A DNA stretch of 64,000 nt from Desulfobacterales bacterium (GCA_963668645.2 CAXXWC010000003.1:150649-214648), one strand, 5' to 3'. Shown: positions 9,438 to 44,206, counted from the stretch's first letter. The notes: generated by a model not told the origin, from the sequence alone. Numbers and translations are program-made.

Positions 9438-9466
9438 TTGAAACGTCGTAAACTCGGTGCTATACC
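9438..9466 (+). promoter_or_regulatory. Candidate sigma-70 promoter of the RND efflux operon
   Basis: TTGAAA (9438-9443), a 17-nt spacer, then TATACC (9461-9466), about 50 nt upstream of ATG 9516. Motif match only. Confidence 0.25.
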
Positions 9467-9515
9467 GGTCAGCAGGTTTTTTGCATTTTTTCAGGATCGT
9501 CGAGGAGACTCTGCC

Positions 9516-13828: not shown

Positions 13829-13993
13829 GCCGAAAAGGACAGGACGGCTCACCCGCTCTGCCCGGCGCCAGGCCCTCGACGGGTTTGTAACCGTCCGGGG
13901 CCGGCGCACGACTGAAGAATGAACATCAAAAAATCTGAACGCCGATACGATCGGCCTTACGGCAATGCCGCCCCATAAAAGAGGCCATTTCCC

Positions 13994-15412: not shown

Positions 15413-15720
15413 TGCCTGCCGCCTCGCAGGGGATATCGCGGCGGAACCTCATCCAGACCGCCCAAGCCGCGATCAGCCGGCCGTCTGGTCGCCCCCCAGG
15501 ACGATGCACCGCCGCCTTGGCCGTGGCGGATCGGTTCCAGCCCTCTTCCTTCCCTCCGGAATAAGCCCGGCCGGCAAACCGCCTGTGGCGATTGCCTTGG
15601 AAACAGTGTACTATTGCCTACTAAGTAGAAATCCAAACAGTGAACGATAACGCCCTTGATTCCCGATGCCGATCGGTGTGCACCGCCCGGCTTCATTTAA
15701 GCACGGACGGACGACCATCC

Positions 15721-16905
15721 ATGCCTACGAAACGAATCTTTCCCTTGCTCGTCCTATTGGCGGCCTTCCCGCCGCTTTCCACCGACATGTACCTGCCGGC
15801 CATGCCGACCTTGCAGCGCATCTGGCACCAGCCCGTGACCATGGTCAACCTGACCTTGATCGTTTTCTTCGTGGCGTTCTGTTTCGCGCTGCTCTTCTAT
15901 GGACCGGTATCGGACCGCTATGGCCGCCGGCCGCCGCTTCTGGCCGGCGTGAGCCTTTATGTCGCGGCCAGCATTGCCTGTGCCGCAGCCCCGGGGGTGG
16001 AATGGATGATCGGCGCCAGGGTGCTGCAAGCCCTGGGCGGGGCCAGCGCCGCGGCCCTGTCCATGGCCGTTACCAAAGACATCTATGACGGCCTCAAGCG
16101 CGCCCGAATCATCGCCCATATTGCGGTGGTTCTGGCCCTGGCCCCTATGCTGGCACCAATGATCGGCGGCTGGCTGCTCTCATGGACGTCCTGGCGGGGG
16201 ATCTTCCTGGTCCAGGCCGCCATGGGGCTGACCGCCATGATCGGCGTCTGGCGCATGCCCGAAACCCTGCCGGTGGCAGCGGCAGCAGGGGTGGGAAAGG
16301 TGGCGGCCGGCTATCTGCGGCTTTTTAAAAACCGCCGCTTCAGCAGCATCACCTTTTCCACCTCGCTGTTGGCGCTGCCGGCCTTCGCCTTTATCGCCGG
16401 CTCGGCGGACATCTACATCAACCACTTCGGGTTGACGCCCCAAAAATTCAGCTATTTTTTCGGCTTCAACGCCACCGGCCTGATGCTCGGCCCCCTGGCC
16501 TTCACGCGCCTGTGCCGGAAAATGCCCACCGCACGGTTGATCACCATCGGCTACGCCGGCATCTGTCTCGGCGGGCTGTTGATGCTGATCGACCCCGGCG
16601 CCGGCGGCCCCTGGCACTTGGCCCTTTGCAACTGGGCCATGGCCTTTTCCTTCGGTTTGTGCCGCCCGCCGGTCAACAACCTGGCCCTTGAGCAGGTCCA
16701 CCAGGACGCCGGGGCCGCCTCCTCGCTGCTCGTTTTCACCTACATGTTGGTGGGTGCGGCCGGGATGGGGCTGATCTCTTTGGACTGGAGCGACAAGGTC
16801 GCCTTGCTCGGATGGTTGGGCCTGCTGGCCGGTGGGGCGAACTTTTTTTTCTGGTTGCGCTTTAAAGACTGCTTCCGCCCGCGCCGCCCCCTGCCGGGGC
16901 CGTGA
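15721..16905 (+). CDS. MFS transporter, Bcr/CflA drug-resistance subfamily
   Basis: Start at ATG 15721 (MPTKRIFPLLVLLAAFPPLSTDMYLPAMP, the family-typical N-terminus). GPVSDRYGRRPPLL MFS motif and 12 predicted TMs. Confidence 0.8.
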   Translation: MPTKRIFPLLVLLAAFPPLSTDMYLPAMPTLQRIWHQPVTMVNLTLIVFFVAFCFALLFYGPVSDRYGRRPPLLAGVSLYVAASIACAAAPGVEWMIGARVLQALGGASAAALSMAVTKDIYDGLKRARIIAHIAVVLALAPMLAPMIGGWLLSWTSWRGIFLVQAAMGLTAMIGVWRMPETLPVAAAAGVGKVAAGYLRLFKNRRFSSITFSTSLLALPAFAFIAGSADIYINHFGLTPQKFSYFFGFNATGLMLGPLAFTRLCRKMPTARLITIGYAGICLGGLLMLIDPGAGGPWHLALCNWAMAFSFGLCRPPVNNLALEQVHQDAGAASSLLVFTYMLVGAAGMGLISLDWSDKVALLGWLGLLAGGANFFFWLRFKDCFRPRRPLPGP

Positions 16906-16983
16906 TTTTGAAAACGCACGCCGCAGCCTCCTTCCTTCTCATGCCCGGGGCCGTGGGGGCCAGATGCCAGAAGCGGGATCCGG

Positions 16984-29100: not shown

Positions 29101-31487
29101 GGGAACGCTTTGAAAATCTGCGCCCAACACTACCAGCCACCGGTTCATCCCCGCGTGTGCGGGGAACGCTGCCGAGGACGGCAAGGACAAGATTGTGGTG
29201 CCGGTTCATCCCCGCGTGTGCGGGGAACGCTCGAAGCTGGATCCGACGATTTCGGCAAGTGCCGGTTCATCCCCGCGTGTGCGGGGAACGCCAAATCAGG
29301 ACCAATCATATTGATACACGTGTCGGTTCATCCCCGCGTGTGCGGGGAACGCTTTGTTTCGGAGGCTTTGGTTTCGAGCTGCGTCGGTTCATCCCCGCGT
29401 GTGCGGGGAACGCTCCGTAACACCGCCAATGGCGGCCTTGCCGGCCGGTTCATCCCCGCGTGTGCGGGGAACGCATGGTGTGCATGCCGCGTTCTAGGGT
29501 GGCGACCGGTTCATCCCCGCGTGTGCGGGGAACGCCAAAAGAGATTGAGCGCGGAGAGGTCGACGTACGGTTCATCCCCGCGTGTGCGGGGAACGCCAGA
29601 TCTGGCTCTTGGATGCACGTGCGAGCAGCGGTTCATCCCCGCGTGTGCGGGGAACGCGGCTGACCATTAAGCTTATGCAGGGGATCAATCGGTTCATCCC
29701 CGCGTGTGCGGGGAACGCTCGCGTGCGCCTGGTCAACAACGTGGTGCCGGCGGTTCATCCCCGCGTGTGCGGGGAACGCTATTTGAATGGTGCTATCATT
29801 GATGCAGGTACCGGTTCATCCCCGCGTGTGCGGGGAACGCTGATGACCACCGGCGCGGAGTGGGTCCTGTTTCGGTTCATCCCCGCGTGTGCGGGGAACG
29901 CTTACGGATACCAAGACTGCCGTCAATATCGGGCGGTTCATCCCCGCGTGTGCGGGGAACGCTGGTAACTCCGAAATCTTGCATGGTATCCCTCCGGTTC
30001 ATCCCCGCGTGTGCGGGGAACGCCGCCGGGAGGGACCGTGGACGGGGCTTTGGAGCGGTTCATCCCCGCGTGTGCGGGGAACGCTTTCAGAACGTTTATC
30101 AGGCGGTGGTTGCCGCCGGTTCATCCCCGCGTGTGCGGGGAACGCCGAGCTCGGCGTTGATTCGGTCGAGCACGTGACGGTTCATCCCCGCGTGTGCGGG
30201 GAACGCATGTCGATGCCTCCGGCCAGCGCCGTGCCGGCCGGTTCATCCCCGCGTGTGCGGGGAACGCAGATCGTCGCGCCGCCGATGATGCTGCAGGACC
30301 GGTTCATCCCCGCGTGTGCGGGGAACGCGGTGGCGTACCAGCTCGATGATTTTTCCATGCCGGTTCATCCCCGCGTGTGCGGGGAACGCCGCAGCACCTC
30401 GTCGGGCTCCATGCCCAGCTCCGGTTCATCCCCGCGTGTGCGGGGAACGCCCTCGACGCCATCGGAGCGATTCATGCAGCCGCGGTTCATCCCCGCGTGT
30501 GCGGGGAACGCGGATCGTGATCAAGCGCAGGCGCATGCGACTGCGGTTCATCCCCGCGTGTGCGGGGAACGCCTTGACCGTCCGCTGAAATTTAAGAAAC
30601 CAAGCGGTTCATCCCCGCGTGTGCGGGGAACGCCCGGCGCCACCGGCGATTGTGGCCACTAATGCCGGTTCATCCCCGCGTGTGCGGGGAACGCCCTGAA
30701 CGTGCCCGCGCAGCATCCATCCAACGCGGTTCATCCCCGCGTGTGCGGGGAACGCCAGGTGTCCATGGGCTCTACCAAATATGGCGTCGGTTCATCCCCG
30801 CGTGTGCGGGGAACGCGATAAACATGATCGTGTTATTGTCCAGGAAAAAGGTTCATCCCCGCGTGTGCGGGGAACGCAACTCAATAAATACCGAATCCTG
30901 CTCACTGGCCGGTTCATCCCCGCGTGTGCGGGGAACGCGTTCCGTTCCGAGTTGTTCAAAGCGCGTGCTTAGGTTCATCCCCGCGTGTGCGGGGAACGCT
31001 AAAATCATGGCGTACGACGCTGCGCCACCACCGGTTCATCCCCGCGTGTGCGGGGAACGCGATCTTACATCGTGGCTGATCCTCTATGGGTACGGTTCAT
31101 CCCCGCGTGTGCGGGGAACGCCCGGCCAGAAAAAACCTACCCGAGCGCGGCGCCGGTTCATCCCCGCGTGTGCGGGGAACGCAGAGAGTGTCTTGCCGAT
31201 ATGAGCTATGACAGCGGTTCATCCCCGCGTGTGCGGGGAACGCGAAACTCGTCAGCCGCCAGTACCGCGTGGCGGTGGTTCATCCCCGCGTGTGCGGGGA
31301 ACGCCGATGCGCCGACACGGTGCCGCGTGTACGCGACGGTTCATCCCCGCGTGTGCGGGGAACGCTTGAATTCCCCGGAACTCAATCGAACACCCTTCGG
31401 TTCATCCCCGCGTGTGCGGGGAACGCAATTTATCCAATGAATGTATCGATTAAATATTCGGTTCATCCCCGCGTGTGCGGGGAACGC
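23161..31487 (-). CRISPR. Type I-E CRISPR array, 137 repeats of 29 nt and 136 spacers (mostly 32 nt), transcribed right to left
   Basis: Plus-strand repeat CGGTTCATCCCCGCGTGTGCGGGGAACGC. The minus-strand form GCGTTCCCCGCACACGCGGGGATGAACCG is close to the E. coli I-E repeat. I stepped through every unit: the period is 61 nt, with a 62-nt step at 26029 (1-nt insertion in the repeat) and another at 28592. The leader and cas2 are at the right end, and repeat mutations accumulate at the left (trailer) end. Confidence 0.97.
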
Positions 31488-31548
31488 ACTAATTCTATCG
31501 CTTCAAAATTATTAAATTTTCAAAGAGCTGAAAAAGTTACCGGCAAAA
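31488..31548 (-). promoter_or_regulatory. CRISPR leader (61 bp, AT-rich) between the cas2 stop and the first repeat
   Basis: The minus strand reads TTTTGCCGGTAACTTTTTCAGCTCTTTGAAAATTTAATAATTTTGAAGCGATAGAATTAGT, the only strongly AT-rich stretch in the locus. It contains TTGAAA and TAGAAT hexamers, but with a non-optimal 20-nt spacing. Confidence 0.6.
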
Positions 31549-32769
<1,221 letters not shown>

Positions 32770-32773
<4 letters not shown>

Positions 32774-33614
32774 TCAATTTCCTTCGGCGCTTTGCAGCGC
32801 AAGCGCTTTTTGCCTTCCGGCGCTTCAAGGTAATTTTCGGGTGTAACGACCTTGGAGCCGGTCTCGATCTCCAGTTTTTCACGGGCATCTCCCGCGATTC
32901 GTCCCCCTTTGCGTGCTGCAATCATGTTTTCACCCACGCCCTGCGCATCCTGCTTTCGTGCAATTTCAGTGGTGGCCGCCTCGCCCAGCATGGAAAAAAT
33001 CAGCTCCAGATCGGTCATGTGGTCGCGCAGGCTTTCCCTCTCCGGCCTTTCAGGTCCTTGTATTCGGACGGCGTCAGCCCGAAAGTGGCCTTTGAAATTT
33101 CGGCCGTCAGGATAGCGTATTCGGGCTCTTCCCCAACCCCTCGCTTCTTCCACTCGTCGGTCAGTTCGGCCCGCACTGCAATCCCGCGCATGCGTTTTTC
33201 GATCCAGTCGTCGGAATAGCCCTTGGCCCGGTAGAGCGCCCGGGTGCGCTTGGAAGCCAACTCCGGGTCTTCTATCTCCTGGACCCTCTCGTAGCCTACC
33301 TTGGCCAGCCAGCGCTTGAACGGTTCGGCTCTATGCGAGGGGATGGACTGGATGATGCGGAAAAGGCCCTCGGTGTTGGCACAGTTAGTCCTACGCAATT
33401 TCCCGTCAGGCGCCAGGAGTTCAAGGGGGGTACAAATTGTACCCCAGTTATTGCTCAACTCTGCATCGCGCCGCCTCATCTTCTTTATGTATTGCTTCGG
33501 ATCGGCGCTATCCGCCAACACTTCCACTACATCGGTAACGGAAAACCACCATTCATTATTATGCGACGCGGGCCGAATTTGTTTGCCTTTGAATACGACC
33601 AACTTGGTCTTCAT
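32770..33614 (-). pseudogene. Bro-N / DinD-like (DNA-damage-inducible protein D family) gene, split by a 1-nt frameshift, inserted between cas6e and cas1
   Basis: The N-terminal ORF (ATG 33614, RBS AGGGGGA) reads MKTKLVVFKGKQIRPASHNNEWWFSVTDVVEVL...CANTEGLFRIIQSIPSHRAEPFKRWLAKVGYERVQEIEDPELASKRTRALYRAKGYSDDWIEKRMRGIAVRAELTDEWKKRG...ILTAEISKATFGLTPSEYKDLKG. The family-typical continuation ERESLRDHMTDLELIFSMLGEAATTEIARKQDAQG... is in the -1 frame (track ORF 32770..33153). The frame change is at about 33040-33050. The stop overlaps the cas1 ATG (ATGA at 32770-32773). Confidence 0.65.
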
Positions 33615-33684
33615 CAATCCCCCTGGCAAGTCACTTAAAACAGCCACCTGGCGCCACCCGTCCGGGGGCACCATCATAATGTGC

Positions 33685-34365
33685 TCAAGTTATGGGAACG
33701 ACCGACATCAGGCCCAGGCCCATGGCCTTTCCGTGACCGATACCGAATTCCAGGGCATCATTGAACTTGCCTGCGTCGGTTACCGAGAGAAGGCCTTCAT
33801 AAAGGACCGCGAAGAGCCGTATCGCGTTGCCGCCATGCTGCCTTCCCCGGAGCATCTGGTCTTGTGATATCCGCACGTCAATCCGCGTTAGCGAGGAACC
33901 TTGAAGATCAGCGCTTTCGGGGTCCCATCCTGGAAACCCAAATCCGTGCAGCCCGGCCTTACGCACAAGCCATGACATCTGCTCGTCGAACCGAAGCAGC
34001 CCGATGCGCTTTCCTTTGCGGCACACGCAGGGATTGGCGCGCAGTCTGAAACGAAATTTCCGGCCGGCCGTGAGCAAATCCAACTTGAGCCGAATCCTCA
34101 GGTCAATGGGGGGATCGGCCCCTGCGAGCCAGCCTCTCACGCCGATCCCTTTCCAGTCGGGCCTCGAACGGCTCTGAACAAGAACCTGGGCAAAGCCGGA
34201 TCGATCCGTTTCCGGTTCGATGCGCCACAGAAATTGGCCGCTTGGGCATTTGCGATCCGGGGGGTTGAATGCCCGGCAAAGCGTGGCATGCAACTGGTAC
34301 GGGTCCGCCAGGTCGCGCCGGGCTTCCCGGCACCGCGGGTCAATGTGGATCCTGTTCAGGAACAT
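33685..34365 (-). CDS. cas6e: CRISPR RNA endoribonuclease Cas6e (CasE/Cse3)
   Basis: Start at ATG 34365 with AGGAGG upstream. MFLNRIHIDPR...DPYQLHATLCRAF..., FRFRLRANP, and the C-terminal GIGHGKAMGLGLMSVVP parallel E. coli CasE (YQLHQGLWHLF, YFRLRANP, GIGPAKSMGCGLLSLAP). Confidence 0.9.
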   Translation of the reverse strand: MFLNRIHIDPRCREARRDLADPYQLHATLCRAFNPPDRKCPSGQFLWRIEPETDRSGFAQVLVQSRSRPDWKGIGVRGWLAGADPPIDLRIRLKLDLLTAGRKFRFRLRANPCVCRKGKRIGLLRFDEQMSWLVRKAGLHGFGFPGWDPESADLQGSSLTRIDVRISQDQMLRGRQHGGNAIRLFAVLYEGLLSVTDAGKFNDALEFGIGHGKAMGLGLMSVVPIT

Positions 34366-35047
34366 CGGATACCTCCTGGGGAAAGGGGATCCACGCCGAA
34401 CGCACGAACCGTGCGCCAAACCGCCGCTCGGAAAAGGACGACAGCGGCTGATCCATTCTCAAAACGCCTGATCCGTCATCGGACTCGAACGAAATCAATA
34501 ATTTCTCAGGTGCTTTTTCCCATTTGCGTTTTGTTGCGATCCATGGCCACCGCGTCAACACGTCCAGCGCGAACTCGTCCTTCAGGCCATCTTCCACCGC
34601 CACCGGTTCGGAGGGCACATAGGATTTGCGCCCCAGGGCCAACGGCCAGAAAGGATTTCTCAGTGCGGCGTCAAGGTTTTCGAGAAACGCGAGGTCATTT
34701 CCTTCCATGCTGACAAGAAAGGCCGCATCAGCGAGATAGTGGCGCTGCGAGACCACACCGTCTTTTGAAAGGCTCCCATCCGCCTTGATGATCCTGTCTG
34801 TGGCCGCGCACCCTGCCGTCTGGTAATCCCGCTTGGGAATCCCCGGCCGGTCATGGCGCACCGCCATCTTCAATTGCGCGATCGGTTCCAGATTTTTCCA
34901 ATTGTCCCGGTCGATTCCCGAGGCAGCAGCCAAAAGCCCGACGACACCCGACTTGCTTGGTTCTTTGCCGGTATCGCGCTGGTCGAATCGGCTGGTGGTT
35001 CCCCAGGATTGCATTGGGCCCGCCAGGCGAAGCAGCAATGTGGGCAT
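34340..35047 (-). CDS. cas5: Cascade subunit Cas5e (CasD)
   Basis: MPTLLLRLAGPMQSWGTTSRFDQRDTGKEPSKSGVVGLLAAASGI compares with E. coli CasD ILRLAGPMQAWGQPTFEGTRPTGRFPTRSGLLGLLGACLGI. Confidence 0.9.
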   Translation of the reverse strand: MPTLLLRLAGPMQSWGTTSRFDQRDTGKEPSKSGVVGLLAAASGIDRDNWKNLEPIAQLKMAVRHDRPGIPKRDYQTAGCAATDRIIKADGSLSKDGVVSQRHYLADAAFLVSMEGNDLAFLENLDAALRNPFWPLALGRKSYVPSEPVAVEDGLKDEFALDVLTRWPWIATKRKWEKAPEKLLISFESDDGSGVLRMDQPLSSFSERRFGARFVRSAWIPFPQEVSDVPEQDPH

Positions 35048-35050
35048 GGC

Positions 35051-36214
35051 TCACTCCTTTGCCGCTTGCACCGCGTTTTCCAGCAGCGCATCCAGGGTAG
35101 TCTCAACCTTGGCTCCCGATCCATCGATCTGCGCGTCCGCGAGATTCAAGATGAACGTCTGCCCGGCGCCCCCGTAGGCGGCCTGGAGCGCCTTGGCTTT
35201 TCGGGCGAGCAATTCGGCCGATTTTCTGGTGATGGACTCATCTTTTCCTACGCGCACTGAGATCTCGAAGGCATTGGCGAGACTTCGCGGTGCCGTATCG
35301 CGGCGCACGGCGATAGCTACGAATTCTGGTGGATTGTGGGCCGCAAAGGTGTTCTGTTTGCCGGTCGGCTCGGCGACCACGAAGGCCTCCAGAAAGGCCT
35401 TCAGCCCTTTTTCTGCGAGATCGGTGTCGCCTTGAAGGTTCCCGACGAGCTTTTCCCAGTCCACGAGCGCATACCGATAGAAACAGGCCGAATTGAACTC
35501 GACAGTTCCCATCATGTCCGCGCCGGCAGTGTCTTCCGGCTTGAGATCGTCCACGGCGGTATAGAAATCGAATTCACGCTCGACGGCATGGGTCGATATT
35601 GCGTGAGCCACCTGGCAAGCGGCATCCTGGTTCTTTTCCGGCATGTCGGCCAGCATGCGTCCGAAAAAAGCCACATCGACCGCTTTGACGCCGTCAAGGA
35701 CCTTGTCGAGGGCTACCTTTAATTCTGGGTCGGCGTCCTGGGCGGCCTTTTTCTTGGCCTTGCCGGCCTTCTTCCCTTCCACCGACGCCGCCTCACCAGA
35801 AACGATACGATCCCAGCGCTTGTCGATGATATCGGCGATTTTCGATATCTCGCGTCGTCCGACAAACAACAGGTACTCGGTTTTCCCGTCATCCTTTACC
35901 GCAAACCCCATGGTTTCCAATGCCGTCTGCGCTTTTCCAGTCGCTTCATCCACGTTGCGTCCTTTTTCTGCCAGGGCCGCGGCCAGAGGCTGCAAAAGGC
36001 GCTTGGTCCGAACGGCGATATCTTCAGATGACAATGCGTTCTTTTTTACCAATCCATTGAAGTGCTGCCTTACCGCCCGCTTGAAACATTGGCTGGAGAC
36101 ACGGGCGCGGCGGGTGCCGCCGAACAGGGCGTCCTTGGGCGCGCCGGTGTCATCCCGGTTCAGGTTGGACGGGGCAAAGTTTTGCAGCGCGTGAATCTCT
36201 ACGATGGTTTTCAT
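35051..36214 (-). CDS. cas7: Cascade backbone subunit Cas7e (CasC/Cse4)
   Basis: [49 protein letters not shown] compares with E. coli CasC [45 protein letters not shown]. 387 aa. Confidence 0.92.
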
Positions 36215-36726
36215 TCGGCGACCTCCTGGTTGGTTAAACCGTTCGATATCGTACCGGATTGGGATCGATAGTAGTCTCGCGCCCAGGCGTTCTGGGTGCG
36301 TTTCTGATCGTCGTTCCAGTACAGCAGACCCTTCAAGACGGATTCAAAGTCTATGGGCTGGTCCTTGAGCAGCGCGACCATCTGGCGCAGCCTGTGGGGC
36401 AACTGGTCTGCGTCGGAATCCAGCAGGTTGATAAAACGCCTCTCGACACTCGTCGAGCCGCTTGCCGATTGAAACGCCGCGCAGGCTCTGCCGAGCGGCA
36501 GCGAAGGTTCCCGTTGTCCCTCTCTCCAGTGCCCGGCCCAAAGACCGGCCACGAGGTAGTGGACCTTGCGCCGCCACGCCGTTTCCGCATCCTTCACGAA
36601 GGGTTCCACGTAAGGAAAGGCAGGCACGAATTGTCCCGGGTCGAACGCCAGGCTCTGGCGCAGGACTGCGCGCACCTTGGTGTCTTTTTCGTTCAAACGC
36701 TCAAGCCATTCGATATAACCGCTCAT
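36211..36726 (-). CDS. cse2: Cascade small subunit Cse2 (CasB)
   Basis: 171 aa, helical and Arg/Trp-rich. Its position between cse1 and cas7, with 4-nt overlaps on both sides, matches the canonical I-E order. Confidence 0.8.
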
Positions 36727-38264
36727 TCCCCCTCCTTGTTCGGTTCGAGCTTCATAATCTCGTTACTCAGCACGTTCAGTTTGTCCCGCACTGGTTTTTC
36801 GGCTTTCACCAGAGCGCGTATAGCCCACGCATCCCCCATGGCGACCGAGGCGCTGTGCTTCTCCCAGGCTTTGCGCAATGCTCCGCGCACCGATTCGAGC
36901 CATTGGCGCCGGATATCATTCTCGTCTCGATCCAGACTGTAGTCTCGCAAAATTTCATGGAAATGGGATTCCATCGCGGACCAATACCAGGCGATCGCAG
37001 GCATCTGCTCCACAAAGTTTTTGACATCCTTCGCTGCCGGTTCACGTCCTCCACGGCCCAACAGTTGCCGTGCAAATGTACGACAGGCCTGCCAAAGAGC
37101 ACTTTGAGCATCTTCGGCGTCGGATAGAAGCTGATGGATTTCCGTACGGATAAAACGGTCGGTGCCCAACGCTTCGGGTAAGGCGAATCGTTCCATCCGC
37201 CAATACTTGATCTTTGCCTTGTCGTTGGCCTGACCGAGGACAATTACCGACTTGGGAAATCGCCCCCGATCTGCTCGGGTTAAAATCGTTGCATGCTCGA
37301 TAACACGCGGTGCCAGGCGCGATTCATCCGGCAACAAGGAATCGAAGTCACGCCAAAGCCCTCGATCACGGAACTGGACCGGCAATTTTCCTCTTTTTTC
37401 GTCGATCCGGTAACCGAGCATGGGATCGACATATCCTTCCAAGGAGCACCCAATACCGGACGCGAAAGTCAGTTCCGCAATCGAAGCGTCGCCCCCCTGC
37501 GGATTGAATTTGATGGATCTCGTCCTCCAAGTATATAGATCCGACCGTCCCAAAACGGCTCTTTCTATGCCTTTTTGGAGAGATGCGAGAGAGTCCGGCG
37601 CTCTTTCCCAAACAGGAACGTCTGTTTTGAGTATTTCCCGGTTTTCAGGAACCAATGAAAAAAGAAGAGTGTCTTGAAGGGTTATGCCCAATGGAAGCGC
37701 CATTGCCGTAGCGGCTGAAGGCCCGCTCTTGGTATATTGGAAATCGCTTCTGCCACCGCCCAGCGCAAATGTTTGAGAAGCGATCAGCCAGCGAACCGCC
37801 TTCTTGGCGGGGATCGATCCTGCCTGCCGAATGTCGAGGTGATCGAAAAGGACCTTGGCATTGTCGGCATTGTGCTCTGCAGCGATTGCCGCCCATGAAC
37901 GCCACCGCTTCTTACCGCCTTTTTCTTTTGGCTCATAATCCGGAATCTGAAAAAAGGGATATTCTTCGTCAAACAACCAGAACCGGCTCCGCCATTTCTC
38001 CAGATAATCGGCGATCCGCTCGTCGGGCAGACCGCTTTTGAACAAAGCCTTGGCCTGGTCGATGCCGGTCGGCCCTTCCAGCGCACGGTAAAGCACCGCC
38101 AGCAGGAAACGATGCAAGGCGGCGACCACCAGGGGCGATGGATCCTCGATGGCGGAAATCTCCAAGGCGCGGCGCAGCGTGTCGCGGATGCCCAGTTCGT
38201 CGCGGGATCCGTCTGGAAACCGCACCGGAATCCATTTCTCGTCGATCAGGTTGAATCGGCTCAT
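36723..38264 (-). CDS. cse1: Cascade large subunit Cse1 (CasA/Cas8e)
   Basis: 513 aa. The N-terminus MSRFNLIDEKWIPVRFPDGSRDELGIRD is the typical Cse1 opening (NLLxxxWIPV). It lies directly downstream of cas3 with a 4-nt overlap. Confidence 0.85.
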   Translation of the reverse strand: MSRFNLIDEKWIPVRFPDGSRDELGIRDTLRRALEISAIEDPSPLVVAALHRFLLAVLYRALEGPTGIDQAKALFKSGLPDERIADYLEKWRSRFWLFDEEYPFFQIPDYEPKEKGGKKRWRSWAAIAAEHNADNAKVLFDHLDIRQAGSIPAKKAVRWLIASQTFALGGGRSDFQYTKSGPSAATAMALPLGITLQDTLLFSLVPENREILKTDVPVWERAPDSLASLQKGIERAVLGRSDLYTWRTRSIKFNPQGGDASIAELTFASGIGCSLEGYVDPMLGYRIDEKRGKLPVQFRDRGLWRDFDSLLPDESRLAPRVIEHATILTRADRGRFPKSVIVLGQANDKAKIKYWRMERFALPEALGTDRFIRTEIHQLLSDAEDAQSALWQACRTFARQLLGRGGREPAAKDVKNFVEQMPAIAWYWSAMESHFHEILRDYSLDRDENDIRRQWLESVRGALRKAWEKHSASVAMGDAWAIRALVKAEKPVRDKLNVLSNEIMKLEPNKEGE

Positions 38265-40960
38265 TCGGCCTCCTTTGGTTCAAACACCAACCCCAGGTCT
38301 TCATCCAGGCGCACGGACGGATCTTCCACCCACTGGCCGTCCGGTCTCAGCACGAGCGCAAAGCAGTTGCGCAACAACGACGATTCCCGCCATCCTTCCG
38401 GAATTCCCTGGGTTTTGAGTCTTGCGACGACGCCTTTGCGCGACAGGCTCACGGCCCGCTGGAACCATCGCTTGGCCGTTGCGAAATCCGGCGCGTCGGC
38501 CGGCTGGAATCCATCGGCCGCAAACAGGGGAATAGCCACCACGGAATCCTCACCGAACCGGGTTCGGGCCATGAGGGTTCGATGCACGCCCGGGGCATCC
38601 TCGTCGTAAAGCACGAACCTTGCCGGATCATTCCAAGACCCATCGTCCGGAAAGCCCACGATCGCATGGTGGGCCATCGCCTGGAATGCGAGGGCGTCGC
38701 CATCTGCCTTGATCCGGGCGCTTTCCAGTCGTTCCTGCAAGGCTTCGGTGACCTCCACCTCGTCTTCGTACACGGCCTGAACCAAGGGGTCGATCTCGTC
38801 CGGCAGTGTCAGGGTCGGCCGGTCTTTCAGCAGGCTCCAGGTGCGCAAGAGCAGATCTTCGCGATAAACGGAATCCCACCACAACGGCTTTCCGAAGGAT
38901 GGCGGCACTTCGCTATCGAGTCCTGAAACCATCAGAATCGGTTCGGCCACGGGCCTCGAATCCGCAGCATGCCGCCACAAGCGCCCGGCCCTTTGAAGAA
39001 CGAGGTCGATGGGCGCCAGATCGGTCACCATGATGTCGAAATCGAGATCAAGGCTCTGCTCGGCGACCTGGGTGGCGATGAGGATCTTGCGGCCGGACCG
39101 AACGCTATCCTTGCCGAACGCCGCGAGCGCATGGTCCTCCCGAACCTGCCTCCAGGAGGCCGGAAAGCGCGCATGGAAGAGGAACACCTCCGTGCCGTCC
39201 TCAAGGCGCTTGCCGACTCGGCGGTTCTGGCACACCACAGGCTCGCCCTCGGGAGACAGCCGGTAGAGGTCCTGGGCGCGCTGCACCGTGTTGACCAGGG
39301 CCAGCCCCGTGCCACCTCCGGCAAGATGGGCCTCAAGGCTGGCACGGATAACCGATAAATCGGACGGGATGCCGACGAGCCGCAGCACCCGGCGGCGTTT
39401 CGGGTCCGCCTCGAAGTGCGTTTGCGCCACGCCCTCTTGATTGAAAACCGTCAGACGCGGATACCCCGGTTCTCGCTCCAGCTTCTCCGCACCCACCACC
39501 GCCGCCAACTTCCGACGGATCGATGGCGACAAGGTGGCCGAAAGGAGCACCACCGAAGAGCCAAGCGCCAGAAGCCATCGCAGCAGGTGGACCAGCAGGG
39601 TGCCGGTGTAGGCGTCGTAGGCGTGGATTTCGTCCAGCACCACGACCCGGTTGGCAAGTCCCCACAGGCGGACGAAGTTGTGGCGAACCGGCAGGATCGG
39701 CAACAGCGCCTGATCCACGGTCCCGACCCCGTATTCCGAGAGCAACGCCCGCTTCTTGTGGGTGAACCATTCGCCGGCGCGGATTTCGCCCCCCGATTCA
39801 GGGTCGTGTATCCCCGTTAAGCGCAAATCCTGAAAGCTGTCGTTGAGCAACGCCCCACCGTGCAATAGCTGCAAGTCCAGCGATCGGTCGGAGATCTGGC
39901 CCGTCAGGAAATCGCGCGTCCGGGCGAACATTGCATTTCCGGTGGCCTTGGTCGGCAGCGCCACGTAGAGGCCGCGATGGCCGAAACGGCGTTGCAGCTC
40001 CAGGTACGCGTAAAAAGCGGCCTCGGTCTTTCCTTCGCCCATGGGTGCTTCCACCAGCAGGATGGCCGGCGCCGGCACTTTTGTTACTATGTTTTCCACA
40101 GCCTGCTGAAGAGTACGAGGCCTAAGGCCGAAAACCGATTCAAACGACTCCGCTTCTTTAGAAAGCGGATCCCTTCTCTGCCAACCGAGGCTGTCCAGGG
40201 CATGATCAGCAAACATCCTGCGCTTTGCAAACCAGGCTTTCAGGTCAACACAATCTTCTACGGTTCCAAACGGGAACCAATCGACGTTTGAGCCAATCCA
40301 GTCGGCAAAGCTGGTCAGACCGGCCAACAGCATAAAATCCTGCCCTGAAAGGTTCTGTGTTTCAGGTAGAATTCCTGTGCCTAAAACTTCAAATACGGAC
40401 TCCATGATGTCGCGCCGGGCATCGTTCCATTCCTTTTTTCCAATGGCGCGTTGATCTCCACTTAATCTATCCAGAACTGTCGGGTTAGCTCTCTCGCCAT
40501 GGTGGCAACCAACCGCATCCGCGGCCGACTCCGCCAGATCCTCGGACCAGCCTTTCTCCACAAGAAATTCTGTCAAAGCGATCTGGCTGACAAAGGCATG
40601 ATTGATATTGGTGTTCGGACTTCTGGGAAGCTCCAAGCCGGTACCGCTGGAAAGCCATCCGAGCCACTTGCACTGGAACCCCGGGCAGGCTTTGCCCAAA
40701 TCATGGCATGCGGATAGGCTTAAAATCCAAGACCGTGCCATAACCCATTTCATACCCAAAATCCCAGAGATCAAATTCCTTGTTGTCTCCGGCTCTCTTG
40801 CCAATATTGCATCCGTACAGGCAGCCACATCCAGAAGATGAAGAATAAGAGGATGCCATTTTGCTTCCCCACTGCTCTCTGTTTTAGCCCAGAGGCAAGC
40901 CAAACGCTTTTCCACCGTTTCCCCCCCTCGATCCTTCAGTATTCTGTCATAACGTAGCAT
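38261..40960 (-). CDS. cas3: Cas3 HD nuclease / DEAD-box helicase (I-E type)
   Basis: 899 aa. HD domain (HLLDVAACTD...LSACHDLGKACPGFQ...AVGCHHG). Helicase motif I (VEAPMGEGKTEAA), motif II (VVLDEIHAYD), LLSATL, and motif VI (QRAGRLWRH). Confidence 0.95.
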   Translation of the reverse strand: MLRYDRILKDRGGETVEKRLACLWAKTESSGEAKWHPLILHLLDVAACTDAILAREPETTRNLISGILGMKWVMARSWILSLSACHDLGKACPGFQCKWLGWLSSGTGLELPRSPNTNINHAFVSQIALTEFLVEKGWSEDLAESAADAVGCHHGERANPTVLDRLSGDQRAIGKKEWNDARRDIMESVFEVLGTGILPETQNLSGQDFMLLAGLTSFADWIGSNVDWFPFGTVEDCVDLKAWFAKRRMFADHALDSLGWQRRDPLSKEAESFESVFGLRPRTLQQAVENIVTKVPAPAILLVEAPMGEGKTEAAFYAYLELQRRFGHRGLYVALPTKATGNAMFARTRDFLTGQISDRSLDLQLLHGGALLNDSFQDLRLTGIHDPESGGEIRAGEWFTHKKRALLSEYGVGTVDQALLPILPVRHNFVRLWGLANRVVVLDEIHAYDAYTGTLLVHLLRWLLALGSSVVLLSATLSPSIRRKLAAVVGAEKLEREPGYPRLTVFNQEGVAQTHFEADPKRRRVLRLVGIPSDLSVIRASLEAHLAGGGTGLALVNTVQRAQDLYRLSPEGEPVVCQNRRVGKRLEDGTEVFLFHARFPASWRQVREDHALAAFGKDSVRSGRKILIATQVAEQSLDLDFDIMVTDLAPIDLVLQRAGRLWRHAADSRPVAEPILMVSGLDSEVPPSFGKPLWWDSVYREDLLLRTWSLLKDRPTLTLPDEIDPLVQAVYEDEVEVTEALQERLESARIKADGDALAFQAMAHHAIVGFPDDGSWNDPARFVLYDEDAPGVHRTLMARTRFGEDSVVAIPLFAADGFQPADAPDFATAKRWFQRAVSLSRKGVVARLKTQGIPEGWRESSLLRNCFALVLRPDGQWVEDPSVRLDEDLGLVFEPKEAE

Positions 40961-41339
40961 TCCGGTCCGAAATTTTTAGCCAAATTTTCCCCACAGCCCG
41001 TGCATCGTCCAGAGCCCGATGCAGCCGCAACGCCTCGGTCTCCCCAGGAACCAGATAGAGGTCGCCGCCGATAAATTGACGAAAGTAATCAAAGACCAGC
41101 ACCGGTTCGGGCTGGCCGGCGAACATCGCCTCGCTGATACCGTGGACCTGCCTTGCACCGGGTGTAACTTTCCGGCCGCAGTCGATCATGCTGTGAAACG
41201 CCTCACCCGGACCGGCGCCGGATATGCGCACCGTGGCGATTTCGATCACCCGGTGCCCGCGTGCCGGCGACATGCCGGTGGTTTTCAGGTCCACCGCCCC
41301 GGCTGGTTTCAGTTTTCTTTTGCCCAATTCACACCTCAT
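40947..41339 (-). CDS. Degenerate DEDDh (DnaQ-like) 3'-5' exonuclease domain protein, probably catalytically dead
   Basis: Start at ATG 41339, which overlaps the stop of the upstream gene (ATGA). The 3' end overlaps cas3 by 14 nt. Exo I reads VDLKTTG (Lys where the catalytic Glu of DxE is expected). IIEIA-like RVIEIATVRI, HGISEAMFAGQP, and Exo III HRALDDARA are present. The Exo II HNxxFD block and about 50 residues between FIGGD and LRLH are missing. Confidence 0.55.
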   Translation of the reverse strand: MRCELGKRKLKPAGAVDLKTTGMSPARGHRVIEIATVRISGAGPGEAFHSMIDCGRKVTPGARQVHGISEAMFAGQPEPVLVFDYFRQFIGGDLYLVPGETEALRLHRALDDARAVGKIWLKISDRNATL

Positions 41340-42154
41340 TTCAGGGGCCTTGTACCCCTGCATTGCGGATAATCGGAGCAACCCCAGAACCGGGTGCCGG
41401 CGTTTTTCCCGTAGCGGGCGGTTCGTTGCTTCATGGGCCGGCCACACTTGGGGCAAACCGGGGGTTGGGTCGGATCGGCCTGATCGGACTGATCCGTCGG
41501 ATCGGACCGATCGGAAGACAGTTTATTGCAACGCCGCTCGGCCAGGCGGGCCGCCAGGAGATTTTCGCGATAGCCGCCCTTTTCGATAACGGCCCGTTCC
41601 AGAGCCGTAATCTGGCGGTCCAAAAGAAAGTTAGCCTGGTGGATCAGGCAGATCAGGGTATTGGCGACGATGGCCGGATCGGGATTTTCCAGCCAAAAGG
41701 CGTATTTGGAATAATCGGAGGCATCCGACGGATCGGTCGCATCCGTCGGATCAGACATGATTTTGCCCAAACACCGCACTTCCGAGGCCTCCGGGCCGTC
41801 CTTGGCCCATTGGGGAAGATGGCGCTGGCGCAGGAAATCTTCATAATCCAGCAGCAGTTCATCCAGGCTGGCACGGGCCACATTGGTCAGGCGGATTTCA
41901 GAGGCGCTGCTGGTCGCTCCGGCACGGCTTCCTTCGGCGATGTTTTGCCGGCCGCTACGTGCCGCTTGCACCATCTGGTCGTGGGTGCGCGAGCGCGGAT
42001 CGACAAACCTTCGGCAAAAGGAGATTGTCCCATCGTAGATGATGGTTGCCGTTTGAAAACTGCGCAGCTTGCGGTATCCGCCGCCGGCCCTCAAACGCTG
42101 CGGTCGATCTTTCCGGTCCGGCCGGCCTTTTATCGTCGGTCCGTCGGGCGACAC
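41336..42154 (-). CDS. Four-helix-bundle protein (23S rRNA intervening-sequence / Avd-like family) with Asp/Ser/Thr/Pro-rich linkers and a C-terminal topoisomerase-type C4 zinc finger
   Basis: GTG start at 42154. The core YRKLRSFQTATIIYDGTISFCRRF...QMVQAARSGRQNIAEGSRAGATSSASEIRLTNVARASLDELLLDYEDFL carries the QxxRAxxSxxxNIAEG signature of the family. The C-terminus reads CPKCGRPMKQRTARYGKNAGTRFWGCSDYPQCRGT. Confidence 0.65.
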   Translation of the reverse strand: MSPDGPTIKGRPDRKDRPQRLRAGGGYRKLRSFQTATIIYDGTISFCRRFVDPRSRTHDQMVQAARSGRQNIAEGSRAGATSSASEIRLTNVARASLDELLLDYEDFLRQRHLPQWAKDGPEASEVRCLGKIMSDPTDATDPSDASDYSKYAFWLENPDPAIVANTLICLIHQANFLLDRQITALERAVIEKGGYRENLLAARLAERRCNKLSSDRSDPTDQSDQADPTQPPVCPKCGRPMKQRTARYGKNAGTRFWGCSDYPQCRGTRPLK

Positions 42155-42419
42155 CCTCGCTTCTCCCTTGTCTATTGGGGATAACGGCTATGGCAAAGTA
42201 CTGAAGGCCAATTCAAACCGCAAAGACAATCGCAATCAATTGGTTTAACGAAATATATTAATATTTTTACCTGGCACCGCTTCTTCGGAAAACGGGAAGG
42301 TGCACAGGGGCTTCAATCCTCCTTTGACGGAATTTTCAAAAAGGCTACCACATGACTTTGTCAGATCAGGACAAAACCGAGGGGAAAAAAGTCATGGCTT
42401 GTTTTTTTGGGGGCTTGAT

Positions 42420-43499
42420 TTACCCTCTGCTCCCTTCGTGCCAAAGAGATATGTTCTCCGCCGTACGGCTTTCGATTTGCGAGTCCCCCACATCCTGGAC
42501 CTCCTCCAACGGTTCAGGCCCGTATTGGCGCAAGGCTTCAACCATATCCCGGCGTACCGCCTCGCGCAGCTCGACCGGCGCCGCCACATAGGCCTCGGGG
42601 CCCAGACTCAGCACCCACTGCTTGATCTCATCAAGGCCGGCCACCCGAAAGGCGATCTCGATGCCGCCATCGATCTGCTTCTGGATCGACTGGCTCGCAT
42701 GCCAGATCCTTCCGGCGACGTACCTCGCCCAAGCCGGGCTGATACGGATACGCACCGCGTAAATCTCGTCGCTCATCACCTTGAAGCTGTTTTTGACAAA
42801 ATCCACGAAACGGAAGGTATCCGGAATTGTGAAAAAATCATCGGTGGACTGAAGCAGACTTATACGGTCCACTGCGAAAATGCGAACCGCCGCGCGCAGA
42901 TGGCAGTAAGCCACTAGGTAGATGGTGCCGTCCTGATACCAGACCTTGTATGGGTCGATACGCCGGCGAACCCGTTCGCTGTCGCGCAGGCCCTGGTAGG
43001 CGATCTCCAAGGTGCGTTTCTCCACGGCGGCCGCCGCCACCTGGCTGACGATGCCCGCATGGCGGCCATGATCGCGGCAGGGGCCGAGGCCGGCGCAAAC
43101 GGCATCCTTCAATCGGGCAAGGTAGTCACGCGTCTCGTCCGGCAAACCGGCTTCGACTTTCTGCAACAGTCCTGACAGCGATTCGTGGAACACCGTTCCC
43201 CGCAGCCCGTCCATCATCGCCTCGCTCATCCGCAAGGCCATCAGTTCGGTGGGTTGCAAGGGCTGATCCACGGTAAAACGGTAGCCTTCCATCAGCCGCC
43301 AGCGCTTGCGGCCCCCGACTTTATCGGTATAGATGGGAAACCCGGCCTGTTGCAGGTCTTCCAGATCCCGGTAGGCCGTGCGCTGGCTCACCCCGGCAAG
43401 GGCCTTGATCTGGGCCACGGTGCACCCGGTCCGGGAGGCTTCAAGCCGTCTTAGAATCCGCCATTGCCTGGAAAGCTGGTCTCCGCGCATGTCCCCCAT
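42420..43499 (-). CDS. WYL-domain transcriptional regulator (HTH-WYL-WCX, YafY/PafBC-like)
   Basis: 359 aa. N-terminal wHTH LSRQWRILRRLEASRTGCTVAQIKALAGVSQRTAYRDLEDLQQAGFPIY, and a central WYL region RRIDPYKVWYQDGTIYLVAYCHLRAAVRIFAVDRI. Confidence 0.8.
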   Translation of the reverse strand: MGDMRGDQLSRQWRILRRLEASRTGCTVAQIKALAGVSQRTAYRDLEDLQQAGFPIYTDKVGGRKRWRLMEGYRFTVDQPLQPTELMALRMSEAMMDGLRGTVFHESLSGLLQKVEAGLPDETRDYLARLKDAVCAGLGPCRDHGRHAGIVSQVAAAAVEKRTLEIAYQGLRDSERVRRRIDPYKVWYQDGTIYLVAYCHLRAAVRIFAVDRISLLQSTDDFFTIPDTFRFVDFVKNSFKVMSDEIYAVRIRISPAWARYVAGRIWHASQSIQKQIDGGIEIAFRVAGLDEIKQWVLSLGPEAYVAAPVELREAVRRDMVEALRQYGPEPLEEVQDVGDSQIESRTAENISLWHEGSRG

Positions 43500-43797
43500 C
43501 CTTTTTATAAATCGTTAAACGGCAACCATGCACAGGCTGGTCCAAAATCGGTGTCTGCCTGGGTGAATCGACAGCTGCCGGCAAAAGCGCTGAAACTTCA
43601 CTCGCATGGACCATTCAGCCTGTTGAGTTTGTGAAAAACGGCAAGTCCGGATCCCTGTCCTGTGGTATACCAAAGAAGTACTGGAAACAATGCCCAACGC
43701 GAGGAAAAATTCAGGAAAGCGGCGTTTCCGACAATATTACAGGAAACGGCTGCGCGATCTGCTGCGTTTGTGGCAGGTCAAAATCAGACTGATCGAG

Positions 43798-44085
43798 GTG
43801 ATCTATGCTGGAACCCACGAGGCGCATCAACTGCCCGGTGTCGGTCTGACCAGCGCACGCCACCGAGAGGGGTTTTCCCAGCGCAAGTCGGCCGAGCTGA
43901 CCTGCATTTCCCAGCGGCACATCTCCGAGATGGAAACCGGCAAACGCACCATCGGCAAGGAGCGGGCCAAGGGCACTGGACACCGATTACCGGGGGGTTT
44001 CTGTAGTGGACCATGTACGTTAGGGCACATCATGATCGAGGGCTGCGGCTGGAAATACGGTTGGAAGCAAATCTTGACGGCATAA
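43798..44085 (+). CDS. XRE-family helix-turn-helix protein; both ends uncertain, possibly decayed
   Basis: HTH core LTSARHREGFSQRKSAELTCISQRHISEMETGKRTIGKE. Candidate GTG start at 43798 after GAGG. After the HTH, the expected C-terminal continuation (ALDTDYRG...) appears in a different frame. The in-frame tail is Cys/Gly/Trp-rich and atypical. Confidence 0.35.
   Translation: MIYAGTHEAHQLPGVGLTSARHREGFSQRKSAELTCISQRHISEMETGKRTIGKERAKGTGHRLPGGFCSGPCTLGHIMIEGCGWKYGWKQILTA

Positions 44086-44129: not shown

Positions 44130-44206
<77 letters not shown>

Follow-up and report, generated by a model that had tools for sequence, protein, structure and literature searches.

The window, the whole 64,000-nucleotide stretch of Desulfobacterales DNA that was analyzed, carries a complete type I-E CRISPR–Cas set (cas3, cse1, cse2, cas7, cas5, cas6e, cas1, cas2 and an array), and two extra genes precede its cas3. 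The first codes for a protein with a four-helix bundle and a zinc finger (4HB-ZnF), and the second is an exonuclease-like open reading frame (ORF). All operon genes treated here are on the minus strand, and coordinates are positions in the whole window (Table 1).

Table 1. Features of the type I-E locus and its 5' flank, in window coordinates
Feature	Position	Strand	Description and basis
tRNA-Met, island border	44130-44206	-	Start of the flank common to the window and the sister locus (L001)
HTH-WYL-WCX transcription regulator	42420-43499	-	Profile match, including the Cas-associated WYL model
Intergenic region, WYL gene/4HB-ZnF gene	42155-42419	-	Possible promoter or operator region
4HB-ZnF gene	41336-42154	-	272 aa, GTG start; ORF call, family matches, alignment and AlphaFold model
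ATGA stop/start overlap, 4HB-ZnF gene/exonuclease remnant	41336-41339	-	Sequence
Exonuclease-like ORF, degenerate standalone CRISPR-associated DEDDh (DnaQ-like)	40947-41339	-	130 aa; profile matches and alignments
14-nt overlap, exonuclease remnant end/cas3 start codon	40947-40960	-	Sequence
Type I-E cas3	38261-40960	-	899 aa; HD nuclease, SF2 helicase and C-terminal domain, apparently intact (profiles)
Remainder of I-E operon after cas3	31549-38264	-	ORF calls
cas8e	36723-38264	-	ORF call, I-E operon
cas11	36211-36726	-	ORF call, I-E operon
cas7	35051-36214	-	ORF call, I-E operon
cas5	34340-35047	-	ORF call, I-E operon
cas6e	33685-34419	-	ORF call, I-E operon
Bro-N gene, inserted in I-E operon	33015-33677	-	ORF call
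cas1	31850-32773	-	ORF call, I-E operon
cas2	within 31549-32031	-	I-E operon
Type I-E CRISPR array	23162-31488		At least 133 repeats, 61-nt period

The two extra ORFs and cas3 run into one another. The TGA stop of the 4HB-ZnF gene (41338-41336) overlaps the ATG of the exonuclease-like ORF (41339-41337), and the identical ATGA junction is found in the sister locus, L001; the ATG of cas3, at 40960, lies inside the end of the exonuclease-like ORF. ORF calls and the sequence reproduce the ORFs, the ATGA and the 14-nt cas3 overlap as the first-pass annotation had described them, and profile matches bear out the folds it gave, both ORFs being real genes or gene remnants. No credible terminator was found between the 4HB-ZnF gene, the exonuclease remnant and cas3. 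Because of this and the overlaps, both extra ORFs are likely co-transcribed with cas3.

The regulator gene upstream lies outside the segment flagged in the first pass (40947-42154). It has the same HTH, WYL and WCX domains as the WYL regulators of defense systems (Cas-associated WYL, BrxR/CapW-like), is matched by the PADLOC Cas-associated WYL model at 4e-40 and is 90% identical in the sister locus. Unlike Cas-associated WYL regulators, it has close homologs (74-81% identity) beside unrelated conflict systems, adjoining ARPP-1, ADP-ribosylglycohydrolase and ERCC4 genes, and it is a portable defense-island regulator. The intergenic region that follows, possibly a promoter or operator region, contains a 9-bp inverted repeat (42388-42396/42351-42359) that is conserved in the sister locus, as well as an extra AT-rich stretch of ~128 nt (roughly 42195-42322) that the sister locus lacks. 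No consensus sigma-70 promoter was found between 42155 and 42419.

The exonuclease-like ORF falls within a small clade made up of standalone DEDDh genes. Standalone DEDDh exonucleases are widespread ancillary components of CRISPR systems and would ancestrally have trimmed the 3' ends of prespacers (PMC10284694). The first-pass annotation was right to group the DEDDh gene with cas3, since intact relatives stand directly 5' of type I-E cas3 in all seven informative loci (L088, L089, L090, L093, L094, L095 and L096), the same operon position that the window ORF holds. The two genes overlap or abut in four of the seven, with spacings from overlaps of 1-4 nt up to a gap of ~420 nt. In L095 and L096, cas8e, cas7, cas1 and an array are present too, with cas2 confirmed in L095. 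In the two long loci that were examined, the intact DEDDh gene seems to open the operon. The window ORF is itself tied to the CRISPR-associated standalone group by profile homology, although partial, and by its overlap with cas3. A standalone DEDDh gene beside cas genes is already covered by the PADLOC Cas-associated DEDDh model and by the literature (PMC10284694).

The window copy is incomplete. RNase_T matches it at E=1.9e-13 over profile positions 3-89 of 164 only, and for the PADLOC Cas-associated DEDDh model the match (E=7.9e-15) covers the N-terminal half only (positions 2-72 of 139), compared to 4e-42 and 9e-41 for intact copies. In alignments, intact relatives (P0122, P0124-P0126, L093, L095) show DVETTG, HNAxFD and HRALxDA. 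The window ORF reads DLKTTG, so the D-x-E of ExoI is absent, with D-L-K where all intact relatives show D-V-E. The HNAxFD of ExoII and its catalytic Asp are gone through an in-frame deletion of ~52 residues with a junction near 41045, and only the H-x4-D of ExoIII is kept, as HRALDDA. Of the five catalytic residues two are missing, along with a third of the fold. With ExoI altered, ExoII deleted and the profile match partial, the first-pass description of a crippled DEDDh protein is correct. The ORF is of the same fold family as standalone CRISPR DEDDh proteins and the Cas2–DEDDh fusions of type I-E; it differs from the fusions in being unfused to Cas2, in having Lys for the ExoI Glu and in its deleted ExoII, and is presumably inactive. 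Judged by motif loss, the window copy should be catalytically dead, with the glutamate of ExoI and all of ExoII lost.

The sister locus contains a still more decayed copy, located before a different cas operon, of type I-C. That remnant shares the E-to-K change of the window, has a larger deletion and NN in place of the ExoIII DD, and ends in a new, unrelated C-terminus ~240 nt from the type I-C cas3. The trio of WYL gene, 4HB-ZnF gene and exonuclease remnant is conserved there, and the flank common to both loci extends from window position 44174, in tRNA-Met, to 41097, where DNA homology stops inside the exonuclease gene. This flank stands before a type I-C operon in the sister genome, so the cas cassette has been swapped 3' of the tRNA-Met/WYL/4HB-ZnF/exonuclease-remnant flank, with the breakpoint in the dead exonuclease gene.

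One could consider the remnant a domesticated pseudo-enzyme, either a noncatalytic adaptor that binds DNA ends or Cas proteins or a leader ORF that tunes cas3 translation. Two different deletions have left the reading frame open, the cas3 overlap has survived, and over the N-terminal 81 residues the window and sister copies share 88% identity, with a dN/dS of 0.39 (0.39-0.51 for the remnant). However, two in-frame deletions point only weakly to constraint, as they have a chance of about 1 in 9, and the 18 changes in the first 81 codons (8 synonymous and 10 nonsynonymous) fit relaxed selection and are too few to tell neutrality from residual constraint. The copy in the sister locus, uncoupled from cas3 and without its ExoIII residues and original C-terminus, also speaks against a retained role, as does the low-confidence AlphaFold model of the remnant, with a pLDDT of 49.8, though from a shallow alignment. 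A domesticated function is considered quite unlikely.

The segment 40947-41339 is instead best read as what is left of a standalone CRISPR-associated DEDDh 3'-5' exonuclease. The intact enzyme would most likely trim prespacer 3' ends for Cas1–Cas2, as Cas2–DEDDh fusions and host DnaQ/ExoT suggest by analogy. A prespacer-trimming role for the remnant is unlikely in this genome because the exonuclease is predicted to be dead and has the look of a gene in decay; trimming here would fall to host exonucleases. Both known decayed copies kept the frame via in-frame deletions. Ribosomes passing through the remnant would feed the overlapping start codon of cas3, so it is plausible that only frame-preserving decay is tolerated.

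The 4HB-ZnF protein is built, in order, of a 23S-rRNA-IVS/Avd-like four-helix bundle, a suffix domain, a low-complexity SD[PR][ST]D linker and a Topo-I-type C4 zinc ribbon. The bundle is matched by TIGR02436 at 28.4 bits (cut-off 24) and by PF05635 at 24.7 bits, which is under the gathering threshold of 33.8. After it comes the suffix domain, clearly matched by TIGR04258 (65.4 bits, cut-off 40; residues 160-208), and NCBI and JGI name its homologs four helix bundle suffix domain-containing proteins. The C4 zinc ribbon is recognized by Zn_ribbon_Top1 (PF01396) at 38.3 bits (cut-off 32), and its cysteines (C234, C237, C259 and C265) are invariant in an alignment of 22 homologs. The AlphaFold model (pLDDT 80) places helices at residues 31-212 and the ribbon at 232-272, modeled with three strands and a pLDDT above 90; the best PDB fold matches are 2GSC/2RLD of the S23/IVS family (prob 0.98-1.0, E=0.11) and the NEIL3 GRF finger. 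The gene is intact and, with a dN/dS of 0.25 against the sister locus, under purifying selection. The protein probably binds nucleic acid.

In sequence and fold, the protein matches the 23S rRNA IVS or “S23 ribosomal” family (PF05635, TIGR02436; 2GSC, 2RLD), including the SxxxNxxE part of the family motif (S67, N71, E74), but it adds the TIGR04258 suffix, low-complexity SD-rich linkers and the C-terminal Topo-type zinc ribbon. Its gene is likewise embedded in a cas locus: 23S_rRNA_IVP genes occur inside cas loci of types I-B, I-E, II-A and III-B (Zhang et al. 2014; PMC3936711). That earlier study counts against the first-pass interpretation. The Avd protein of diversity-generating retroelements has a related four-helix-bundle fold (PMC10053308) and a different domain architecture. 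The gene was also considered as an Avd accessory of such a retroelement and rejected, since no reverse transcriptase adjoins it; the WYL regulator flanks it on one side and the exonuclease remnant/cas3 on the other.

The 4HB-ZnF family is very large and highly conserved across phyla, with at least 8000 matches at ~60-70% identity in many phyla and at least 570 matches in species-representative genomes. None was found in 2.9 million viral contigs, and the PLSDB plasmids hold only one true family member; a search for a mobility mechanism or conserved flanking DNA signal found none. The upstream neighbor is co-directional with the gene in 64 of 83 loci. Type I/IIG restriction-modification genes make up most of the neighbors, with some cas genes (I-C, I-E, I-G, III) and some housekeeping genes; Pfam counts are led by HsdR, HsdS, HsdM, MmeI and Eco57I, RAMPs were counted in 2 cases, and there are many singletons from housekeeping genes. 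Housekeeping contexts include a place between murC and murB (L009), one beside AdoHcy hydrolase and one after glutamate dehydrogenase. Among the CRISPR contexts are positions 5' of a type I-G operon (L173) and of a type I-C operon (L176) and one inside a type III locus (L037), with no cas3 in the stretch examined. This family-wide link, mainly to restriction-modification genes with housekeeping operons besides, counts against the first-pass interpretation. The closest relatives present another picture: of the five with at least 72% identity and readable surroundings, four precede type I cas operons, and these represent three subtypes (I-E, I-C and I-G) and at least three different flanking contexts. 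This linkage exceeds the prediction for a pure passenger and hints at a functional tie of 4HB-ZnF to cas3-type operons. Homologs are enriched near CRISPR–Cas loci, the association on which the first-pass annotation had staked its proposal, clearly for the exonuclease and, for 4HB-ZnF, in the closest sub-clade; the link is weak family-wide.

The protein could be a portable partner, such as a regulator or a brake, of translocating helicase-nuclease defense enzymes: Cas3 here and HsdR in type I restriction-modification. The closest relatives at the 5' end of I-E, I-C (twice) and I-G operons with different flanks would suit such a partner, and several homologs are located directly 5' of hsdR. The strong enrichment of restriction-modification genes among the neighbors, the very high sequence conservation across phyla and a zinc ribbon shared with Mrr-like and NERD nucleases point the same way. 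However, many copies sit in housekeeping surroundings, the position inside restriction-modification operons varies, the type III locus shows no cas3 in the part that was examined, and PADLOC has no model for the protein. Such a partnership is judged unlikely; in a weaker variant, the highly conserved gene may serve as a homology handle for cas cassette swaps. Most likely, 4HB-ZnF is a horizontally spread passenger, co-oriented and co-transcribed with its host operon, and not a CRISPR-specific factor.

The first-pass annotation had joined the two extra genes into one dedicated I-E accessory module, for prespacer processing or regulation, fused to a cas3-led operon. The overlaps of the ORFs with each other and with cas3 fit this proposal, as does the trio shared with the sister locus, but there the trio precedes a type I-C operon and not type I-E, and the exonuclease partner is the damaged one described above. 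Outside these two loci, the pair falls apart. Among the 82 loci retrieved with the exonuclease (L088-L169), 0 have the 4HB-ZnF gene, and tblastn found an exonuclease, cas3 or WYL homolog in 0 of 86 4HB-ZnF loci (L002-L087); exonuclease–cas3 loci thus occur without 4HB-ZnF, and vice versa. The sister locus is the only other one with both genes. Since co-occurrence is confined to this lineage, the pair is not a conserved module, and a dedicated I-E role for it is highly improbable. What stands of the earlier interpretation are the real ORFs, their overlaps and the tie of DEDDh to cas3; the conserved module and the prespacer role in this genome do not.

The extra genes before cas3 are not a new CRISPR accessory module, because one is a decayed form of a known exonuclease and the other a widespread gene of many defense and housekeeping operons. 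It is probable that they are two unrelated additions with different histories, a relic CRISPR-associated DEDDh gene and an operon-embedded 4HB-ZnF passenger. The locus mostly repeats what is known: type I-E systems have ancillary DEDDh trimmers, and ancillary genes can decay while the core system persists. Cas cassettes can also be exchanged 3' of a flank with a conserved regulator, in this case at a datable breakpoint in a dead exonuclease gene. The one point worth following up is the 4HB-suffix/zinc-ribbon family, whose genes lie within operons for restriction-modification, for CRISPR and even for essential functions. A role in modulating helicase-nuclease defense enzymes would make this family a new defense accessory of broad distribution.

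Two genes do precede cas3 in this type I-E operon, and the first-pass annotation described their overlaps and folds correctly. It further proposed that the four-helix-bundle and zinc-finger protein (4HB-ZnF) and the DEDDh exonuclease form an undescribed type I-E accessory module for prespacer processing or regulation; that part was not borne out, since tblastn found the exonuclease in none of the fetched 4HB-ZnF loci but L001, the sister locus in a second genome. Homologues of the upstream WYL regulator and of the I-E and I-C cas3 genes were likewise not matched in the fetched loci save in L001. The coordinates first proposed for the open reading frames (ORFs) and for both overlaps were all recovered. 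Cas3 is a complete type I-E protein with an HD domain, a helicase core, and a C-terminal domain, and it is followed on the same strand by cse1/cas8e, cse2/cas11, cas7, cas5, cas6e, cas1, and cas2. The ORF overlaps make it likely that the 4HB-ZnF gene, the exonuclease remnant, and cas3 are co-transcribed. A scan of window positions 42155-42419 found no consensus sigma-70 promoter, and terminator-like matches in the region did not exceed chance level. The CRISPR array is also overlaid by several long ORFs that are spurious.

Features of the cas3-led operon and the region upstream of it, in window coordinates
Feature	Coordinates	Strand	Remarks
Type I-E CRISPR array	about 23162-31488		at least 133 repeats, core GGTTCATCCCCGCGTGTGCGGGGAAC, 61-nt period
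Bro-N gene	33015-33677	-	inserted between cas6e and cas1
cas3 ORF, 899 aa	38261-40960	-	ATG overlapped 14 nt by the exonuclease remnant
Exonuclease remnant ORF, 130 aa	40947-41339	-	ATG 41339-41337 overlaps the 4HB-ZnF TGA
4HB-ZnF ORF, 272 aa	41336-42154	-	GTG start; stop TGA 41338-41336
Extra AT-rich stretch, ~128 nt	about 42195-42322		upstream of the 4HB-ZnF start; missing from L001
9-bp inverted repeat	42351-42396		CATGACTTT ... AAAGTCATG; just past the WYL stop codon; kept in L001
HTH-WYL-WCX regulator	42420-43499	-	upstream of the 4HB-ZnF gene; matches Cas-associated WYL model
XRE-type HTH-like ORF	43690-44085	+	short; lies between tRNA-Met and the WYL gene, divergent from the latter; L001 counterpart 7469-7774
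tRNA-Met terminator-like signal	44118-44089		12-bp stem
tRNA-Met	44130-44206	-	borders the island
tRNA-Met promoter-like signal	44248-44220		sigma-70-like, 11/12

For the regulator upstream of these genes, homologues of 74-81% identity adjoin unrelated conflict systems, and its behaviour is therefore that of a portable defence-island regulator. These close homologues (L170 6903-15095 and L171 1627-3749) have genes for ARPP-1, ADP-ribosylglycohydrolase, an ERCC4 nuclease, and a phosphatase on their flanks, in what seems to be another NAD/ADP-ribose conflict system with the same type of regulator. The inverted repeat after the WYL gene could be an operator. The predicted RNA fold of the WYL/4HB intergenic region is not significant (z-score 0.02), and an Rfam and RNA structure search of the region returned the tRNA-Met only. 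This tRNA forms the edge of a lower-GC defence island, and in L001 an integrase-bearing element lies on its other side. The XRE-type ORF next to it was recognised by eye from the translation.

Profile searches and structure prediction upheld the domain description of the 4HB-ZnF protein. It passes the cut-offs for the Topo-I-type C4 zinc ribbon (PF01396, 38.3 bits against 32), the "four helix bundle suffix" domain of NCBIfam (TIGR04258, 65.4 against 40), and the TIGR02436 four-helix-bundle family (28.4 against 24); for Pfam PF05635, its 24.7 bits fall short of the threshold of 33.8. The AlphaFold model, built with 22 homologues (mean pLDDT 80), folds residues 31-212 into a helical bundle and 232-272 into a ribbon of three strands; the best PDB fold matches are 2GSC and 2RLD ("S23/IVS" four-helix bundles) and, for the ribbon, the NEIL3 GRF zinc finger. 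Four-helix-bundle proteins of this kind are kin to Avd (PMC10053308), and a 2014 report placed 23S_rRNA_IVP-family genes within several types of cas locus, among them I-E (PMC3936711). The 4HB-ZnF gene belongs to a known, uncharacterised family that had thus already been noted in cas loci. PADLOC has no model for it, and a literature search on the four-helix-bundle suffix family, including TIGR02436 with restriction, found no functional study.

The 4HB-ZnF family is very large and unusually conserved, with at least 8000 proteins at ~60-70% identity and matches in at least 570 species-representative genomes. It spans Desulfobacterota, Verrucomicrobiota, Planctomycetota, Acidobacteriota, Chloroflexota, NC10, and others. 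Database names for the homologues are "four helix bundle suffix domain-containing protein" and, loosely, "restriction system protein", and the zinc ribbon is common to Mrr-like and NERD nucleases. Could the gene be an anti-defence gene of phages? There were no matches among 2.9 million viral contigs, and the PLSDB plasmids held one true member, their other matches being the zinc ribbon alone, so this reading was rejected. An enrichment of GATC in the gene was also set aside as a signal. The density is 14.7/kb in the window gene versus 8.0/kb in the whole window, and in the family loci L008-L087 the median is 12.2/kb versus 6.4/kb in the flanks; this roughly 2-fold excess is explained by GAT-C codon pairs in SD[PR][ST]D low-complexity linkers, which are encoded by GAT-C-rich repeats and vary widely in length among homologues. 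The window gene uses GAT 18 times and GAC 5 times.

The second gene was aptly called a crippled DEDDh exonuclease. Only the N-terminal half of the RNase_T/DnaQ-like profile is matched (positions 3-89 of 164, E=1.9e-13), and alignment with intact relatives shows ExoI altered from D-V-E to D-L-K, a loss of 52 residues containing the ExoII motif HNAxFD, and a retained ExoIII motif, HRALDDA. The low-confidence AlphaFold model (pLDDT 49.8) comes from a shallow alignment of 6 sequences and is uninformative on foldability. Standalone DEDDh genes beside cas genes are a known class: the Cas-associated "DEDDh" model of PADLOC matches the intact relatives at ~1e-41 and the window copy partially at 7.9e-15, and in the literature standalone DEDDh exonucleases are widespread CRISPR ancillary components and Cas2-DEDDh fusions of I-E systems trim prespacers (PMC10284694). 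Judged by its motifs, the window gene appears to be the dead relic of this known kind of ancillary gene.

Only six word-sharing homologues of the exonuclease were found in a collection of 5.8 billion proteins, and a metagenome scan added a few further close relatives. Among the eight closest intact relatives (L088, encoding P0122; L089, encoding P0125; L090, L091, and L093-L096), type I-E cas3 lies immediately downstream in seven, and the eighth, L091, is uninformative since its contig ends just past the exonuclease gene. The two genes overlap by 1-4 nt in L088, L090, and L095, are 2 nt apart in L096, and are separated by 76-424 nt in the remaining informative loci; L095 and L096 also contain the rest of the I-E operon and an array. 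The genes upstream of the exonuclease are unrelated: L093 has a DUF3786 gene that points the other way, and L095 has polA across a gap of ~500 nt. The operon there therefore begins with the exonuclease. In three loci of more distant DnaQ-like exonucleases (L111, L117, and L126), WYL-domain ORFs directly follow the exonuclease gene, the WYL query matching by tblastn 40-370 nt beyond the exonuclease match; exonuclease and WYL genes may form a separate pairing here.

The sister locus suggests how the present arrangement may have come about. L001 lies on a 4.4-Mb contig that encodes the exonuclease homologue P0123, and its order is a WYL regulator (90% identical to that of the window), 4HB-ZnF, the exonuclease remnant (called at 104 aa; 108 aa when read from the ATG), and, ~240 nt after the remnant, a type I-C operon (cas3, cas5, cas8c, cas7, cas4, cas1, cas2). 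DNA homology with the window runs from 44174, in the tRNA-Met region, to 41097 and breaks off within the exonuclease ORF, near codon 81; this shared flank (L001 7318-10231), comprising the tRNA-Met, the XRE-like ORF, the WYL and 4HB-ZnF genes, and the 5' part of the exonuclease, is ~90% identical. The same flank thus stands before I-C in one genome and I-E in the other, and therefore the cas cassette was swapped, with the breakpoint within the dead exonuclease gene. The I-E arrangement is most likely ancestral because intact members of the exonuclease clade accompany I-E cas3. An I-C cassette would then most likely have replaced I-E in L001, and the dead exonuclease would be the scar of it.

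Both remnants share the E-to-K change of ExoI, and the L001 copy has a larger in-frame deletion, an ExoIII motif with DD changed to NN and the histidine lost, and an unrelated C-terminus. Between the window and L001, dN/dS is 0.18 for the WYL regulator, 0.25 for 4HB-ZnF, and 0.39-0.51 for the remnant, which suggests relaxed constraint on the last, an estimate with very few substitutions behind it: over the first 81 codons, 8 are synonymous and 10 non-synonymous. The reading frame is nevertheless kept in both decayed copies. Ribosomes translating the remnant may aid initiation at the overlapping cas3 ORF, so that frame-preserving lesions alone would have been tolerated.

Across the family, the partners of 4HB-ZnF are mostly of another kind. 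A set of 80 loci was fetched with flanks of 10 kb, and exact look-ups supplied several more. The commonest Pfam families of the nearest upstream and downstream ORFs are those of type I restriction-modification (ResIII/HSDR_N/SWI2_SNF2, Methylase_S, N6_Mtase) and type IIG (MmeI, Eco57I); RAMPs occur in 2 cases, and housekeeping families seen once each make up a long tail. Of 83 loci, 64 have an upstream neighbour in the same orientation, and the C-terminus of hsdS comes just before the start of many of the genes. The family embeds in essential housekeeping operons too, as in L009 (8391-11858), where a homologue is inserted, in the same orientation, into a cell-wall gene cluster with murC on one side and murB on the other; 4HB-ZnF adjoins an AdoHcy hydrolase gene in L003 and follows glutamate dehydrogenase in L172. 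A tblastn search of at least 86 loci with I-E, I-C, and I-G cas proteins, WYL, and the exonuclease, of limited sensitivity to other cas types, matched L037 alone, through cas1, which argues against a family-wide CRISPR link. L037 (61% identity) also holds the only CRISPR array among the fetched loci. Its 4HB-ZnF gene lies within a CRISPR locus (7747-18888), assigned to type III from Pfam after tblastn had shown cas1, between RAMP genes and genes for a Card1-like CARF protein and a CARF-adenosine deaminase; cas1, cas2, and the array follow. The DNA flanking the 4HB-ZnF genes yielded no attC-like sites, inverted repeats, or other marks of a mobile cassette; GATCCG-like coding repeats were all that the search found. 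The family-wide link is with defence operons in general, restriction-modification being far commoner than CRISPR. The reading in which this family serves helicase-nuclease defence operons as a portable accessory is rather unlikely.

The link with CRISPR-Cas is weak across the family, whose neighbours are mainly restriction-modification genes, but part of the first-pass proposal survives in the sub-clade closest to the window gene, whose members unusually often adjoin type I cas operons. By identity to the window protein, the gene stands before type I-C in L001 (83%), before a Bro-N gene and then type I-C in L176 (P0008, 75%), and before type I-G (GSU0053/GSU0054/cas3) in L173-175 (P0004, 73%); it is away from cas genes in L008 (72%), and the contig of P0002 (78%) ends uninformatively. 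Upstream flanks differ among these loci. In DNA, L001 and L176 share 85-89% identity across their I-C cassettes and have different genes between 4HB-ZnF and cas3. The Bro-N gene of L176 (9124-9753), which lies at that place, is ~82% identical in DNA to the Bro-N gene of the window and is a second promiscuous passenger of these cas operons. The 5' end of cas3-type operons is thus a recurrent site for 4HB-ZnF within this sub-clade, and the recurrence may mean that the gene and these operons are functionally tied, that hitchhiking favours such sites, or that a conserved gene is used as a recombination handle.
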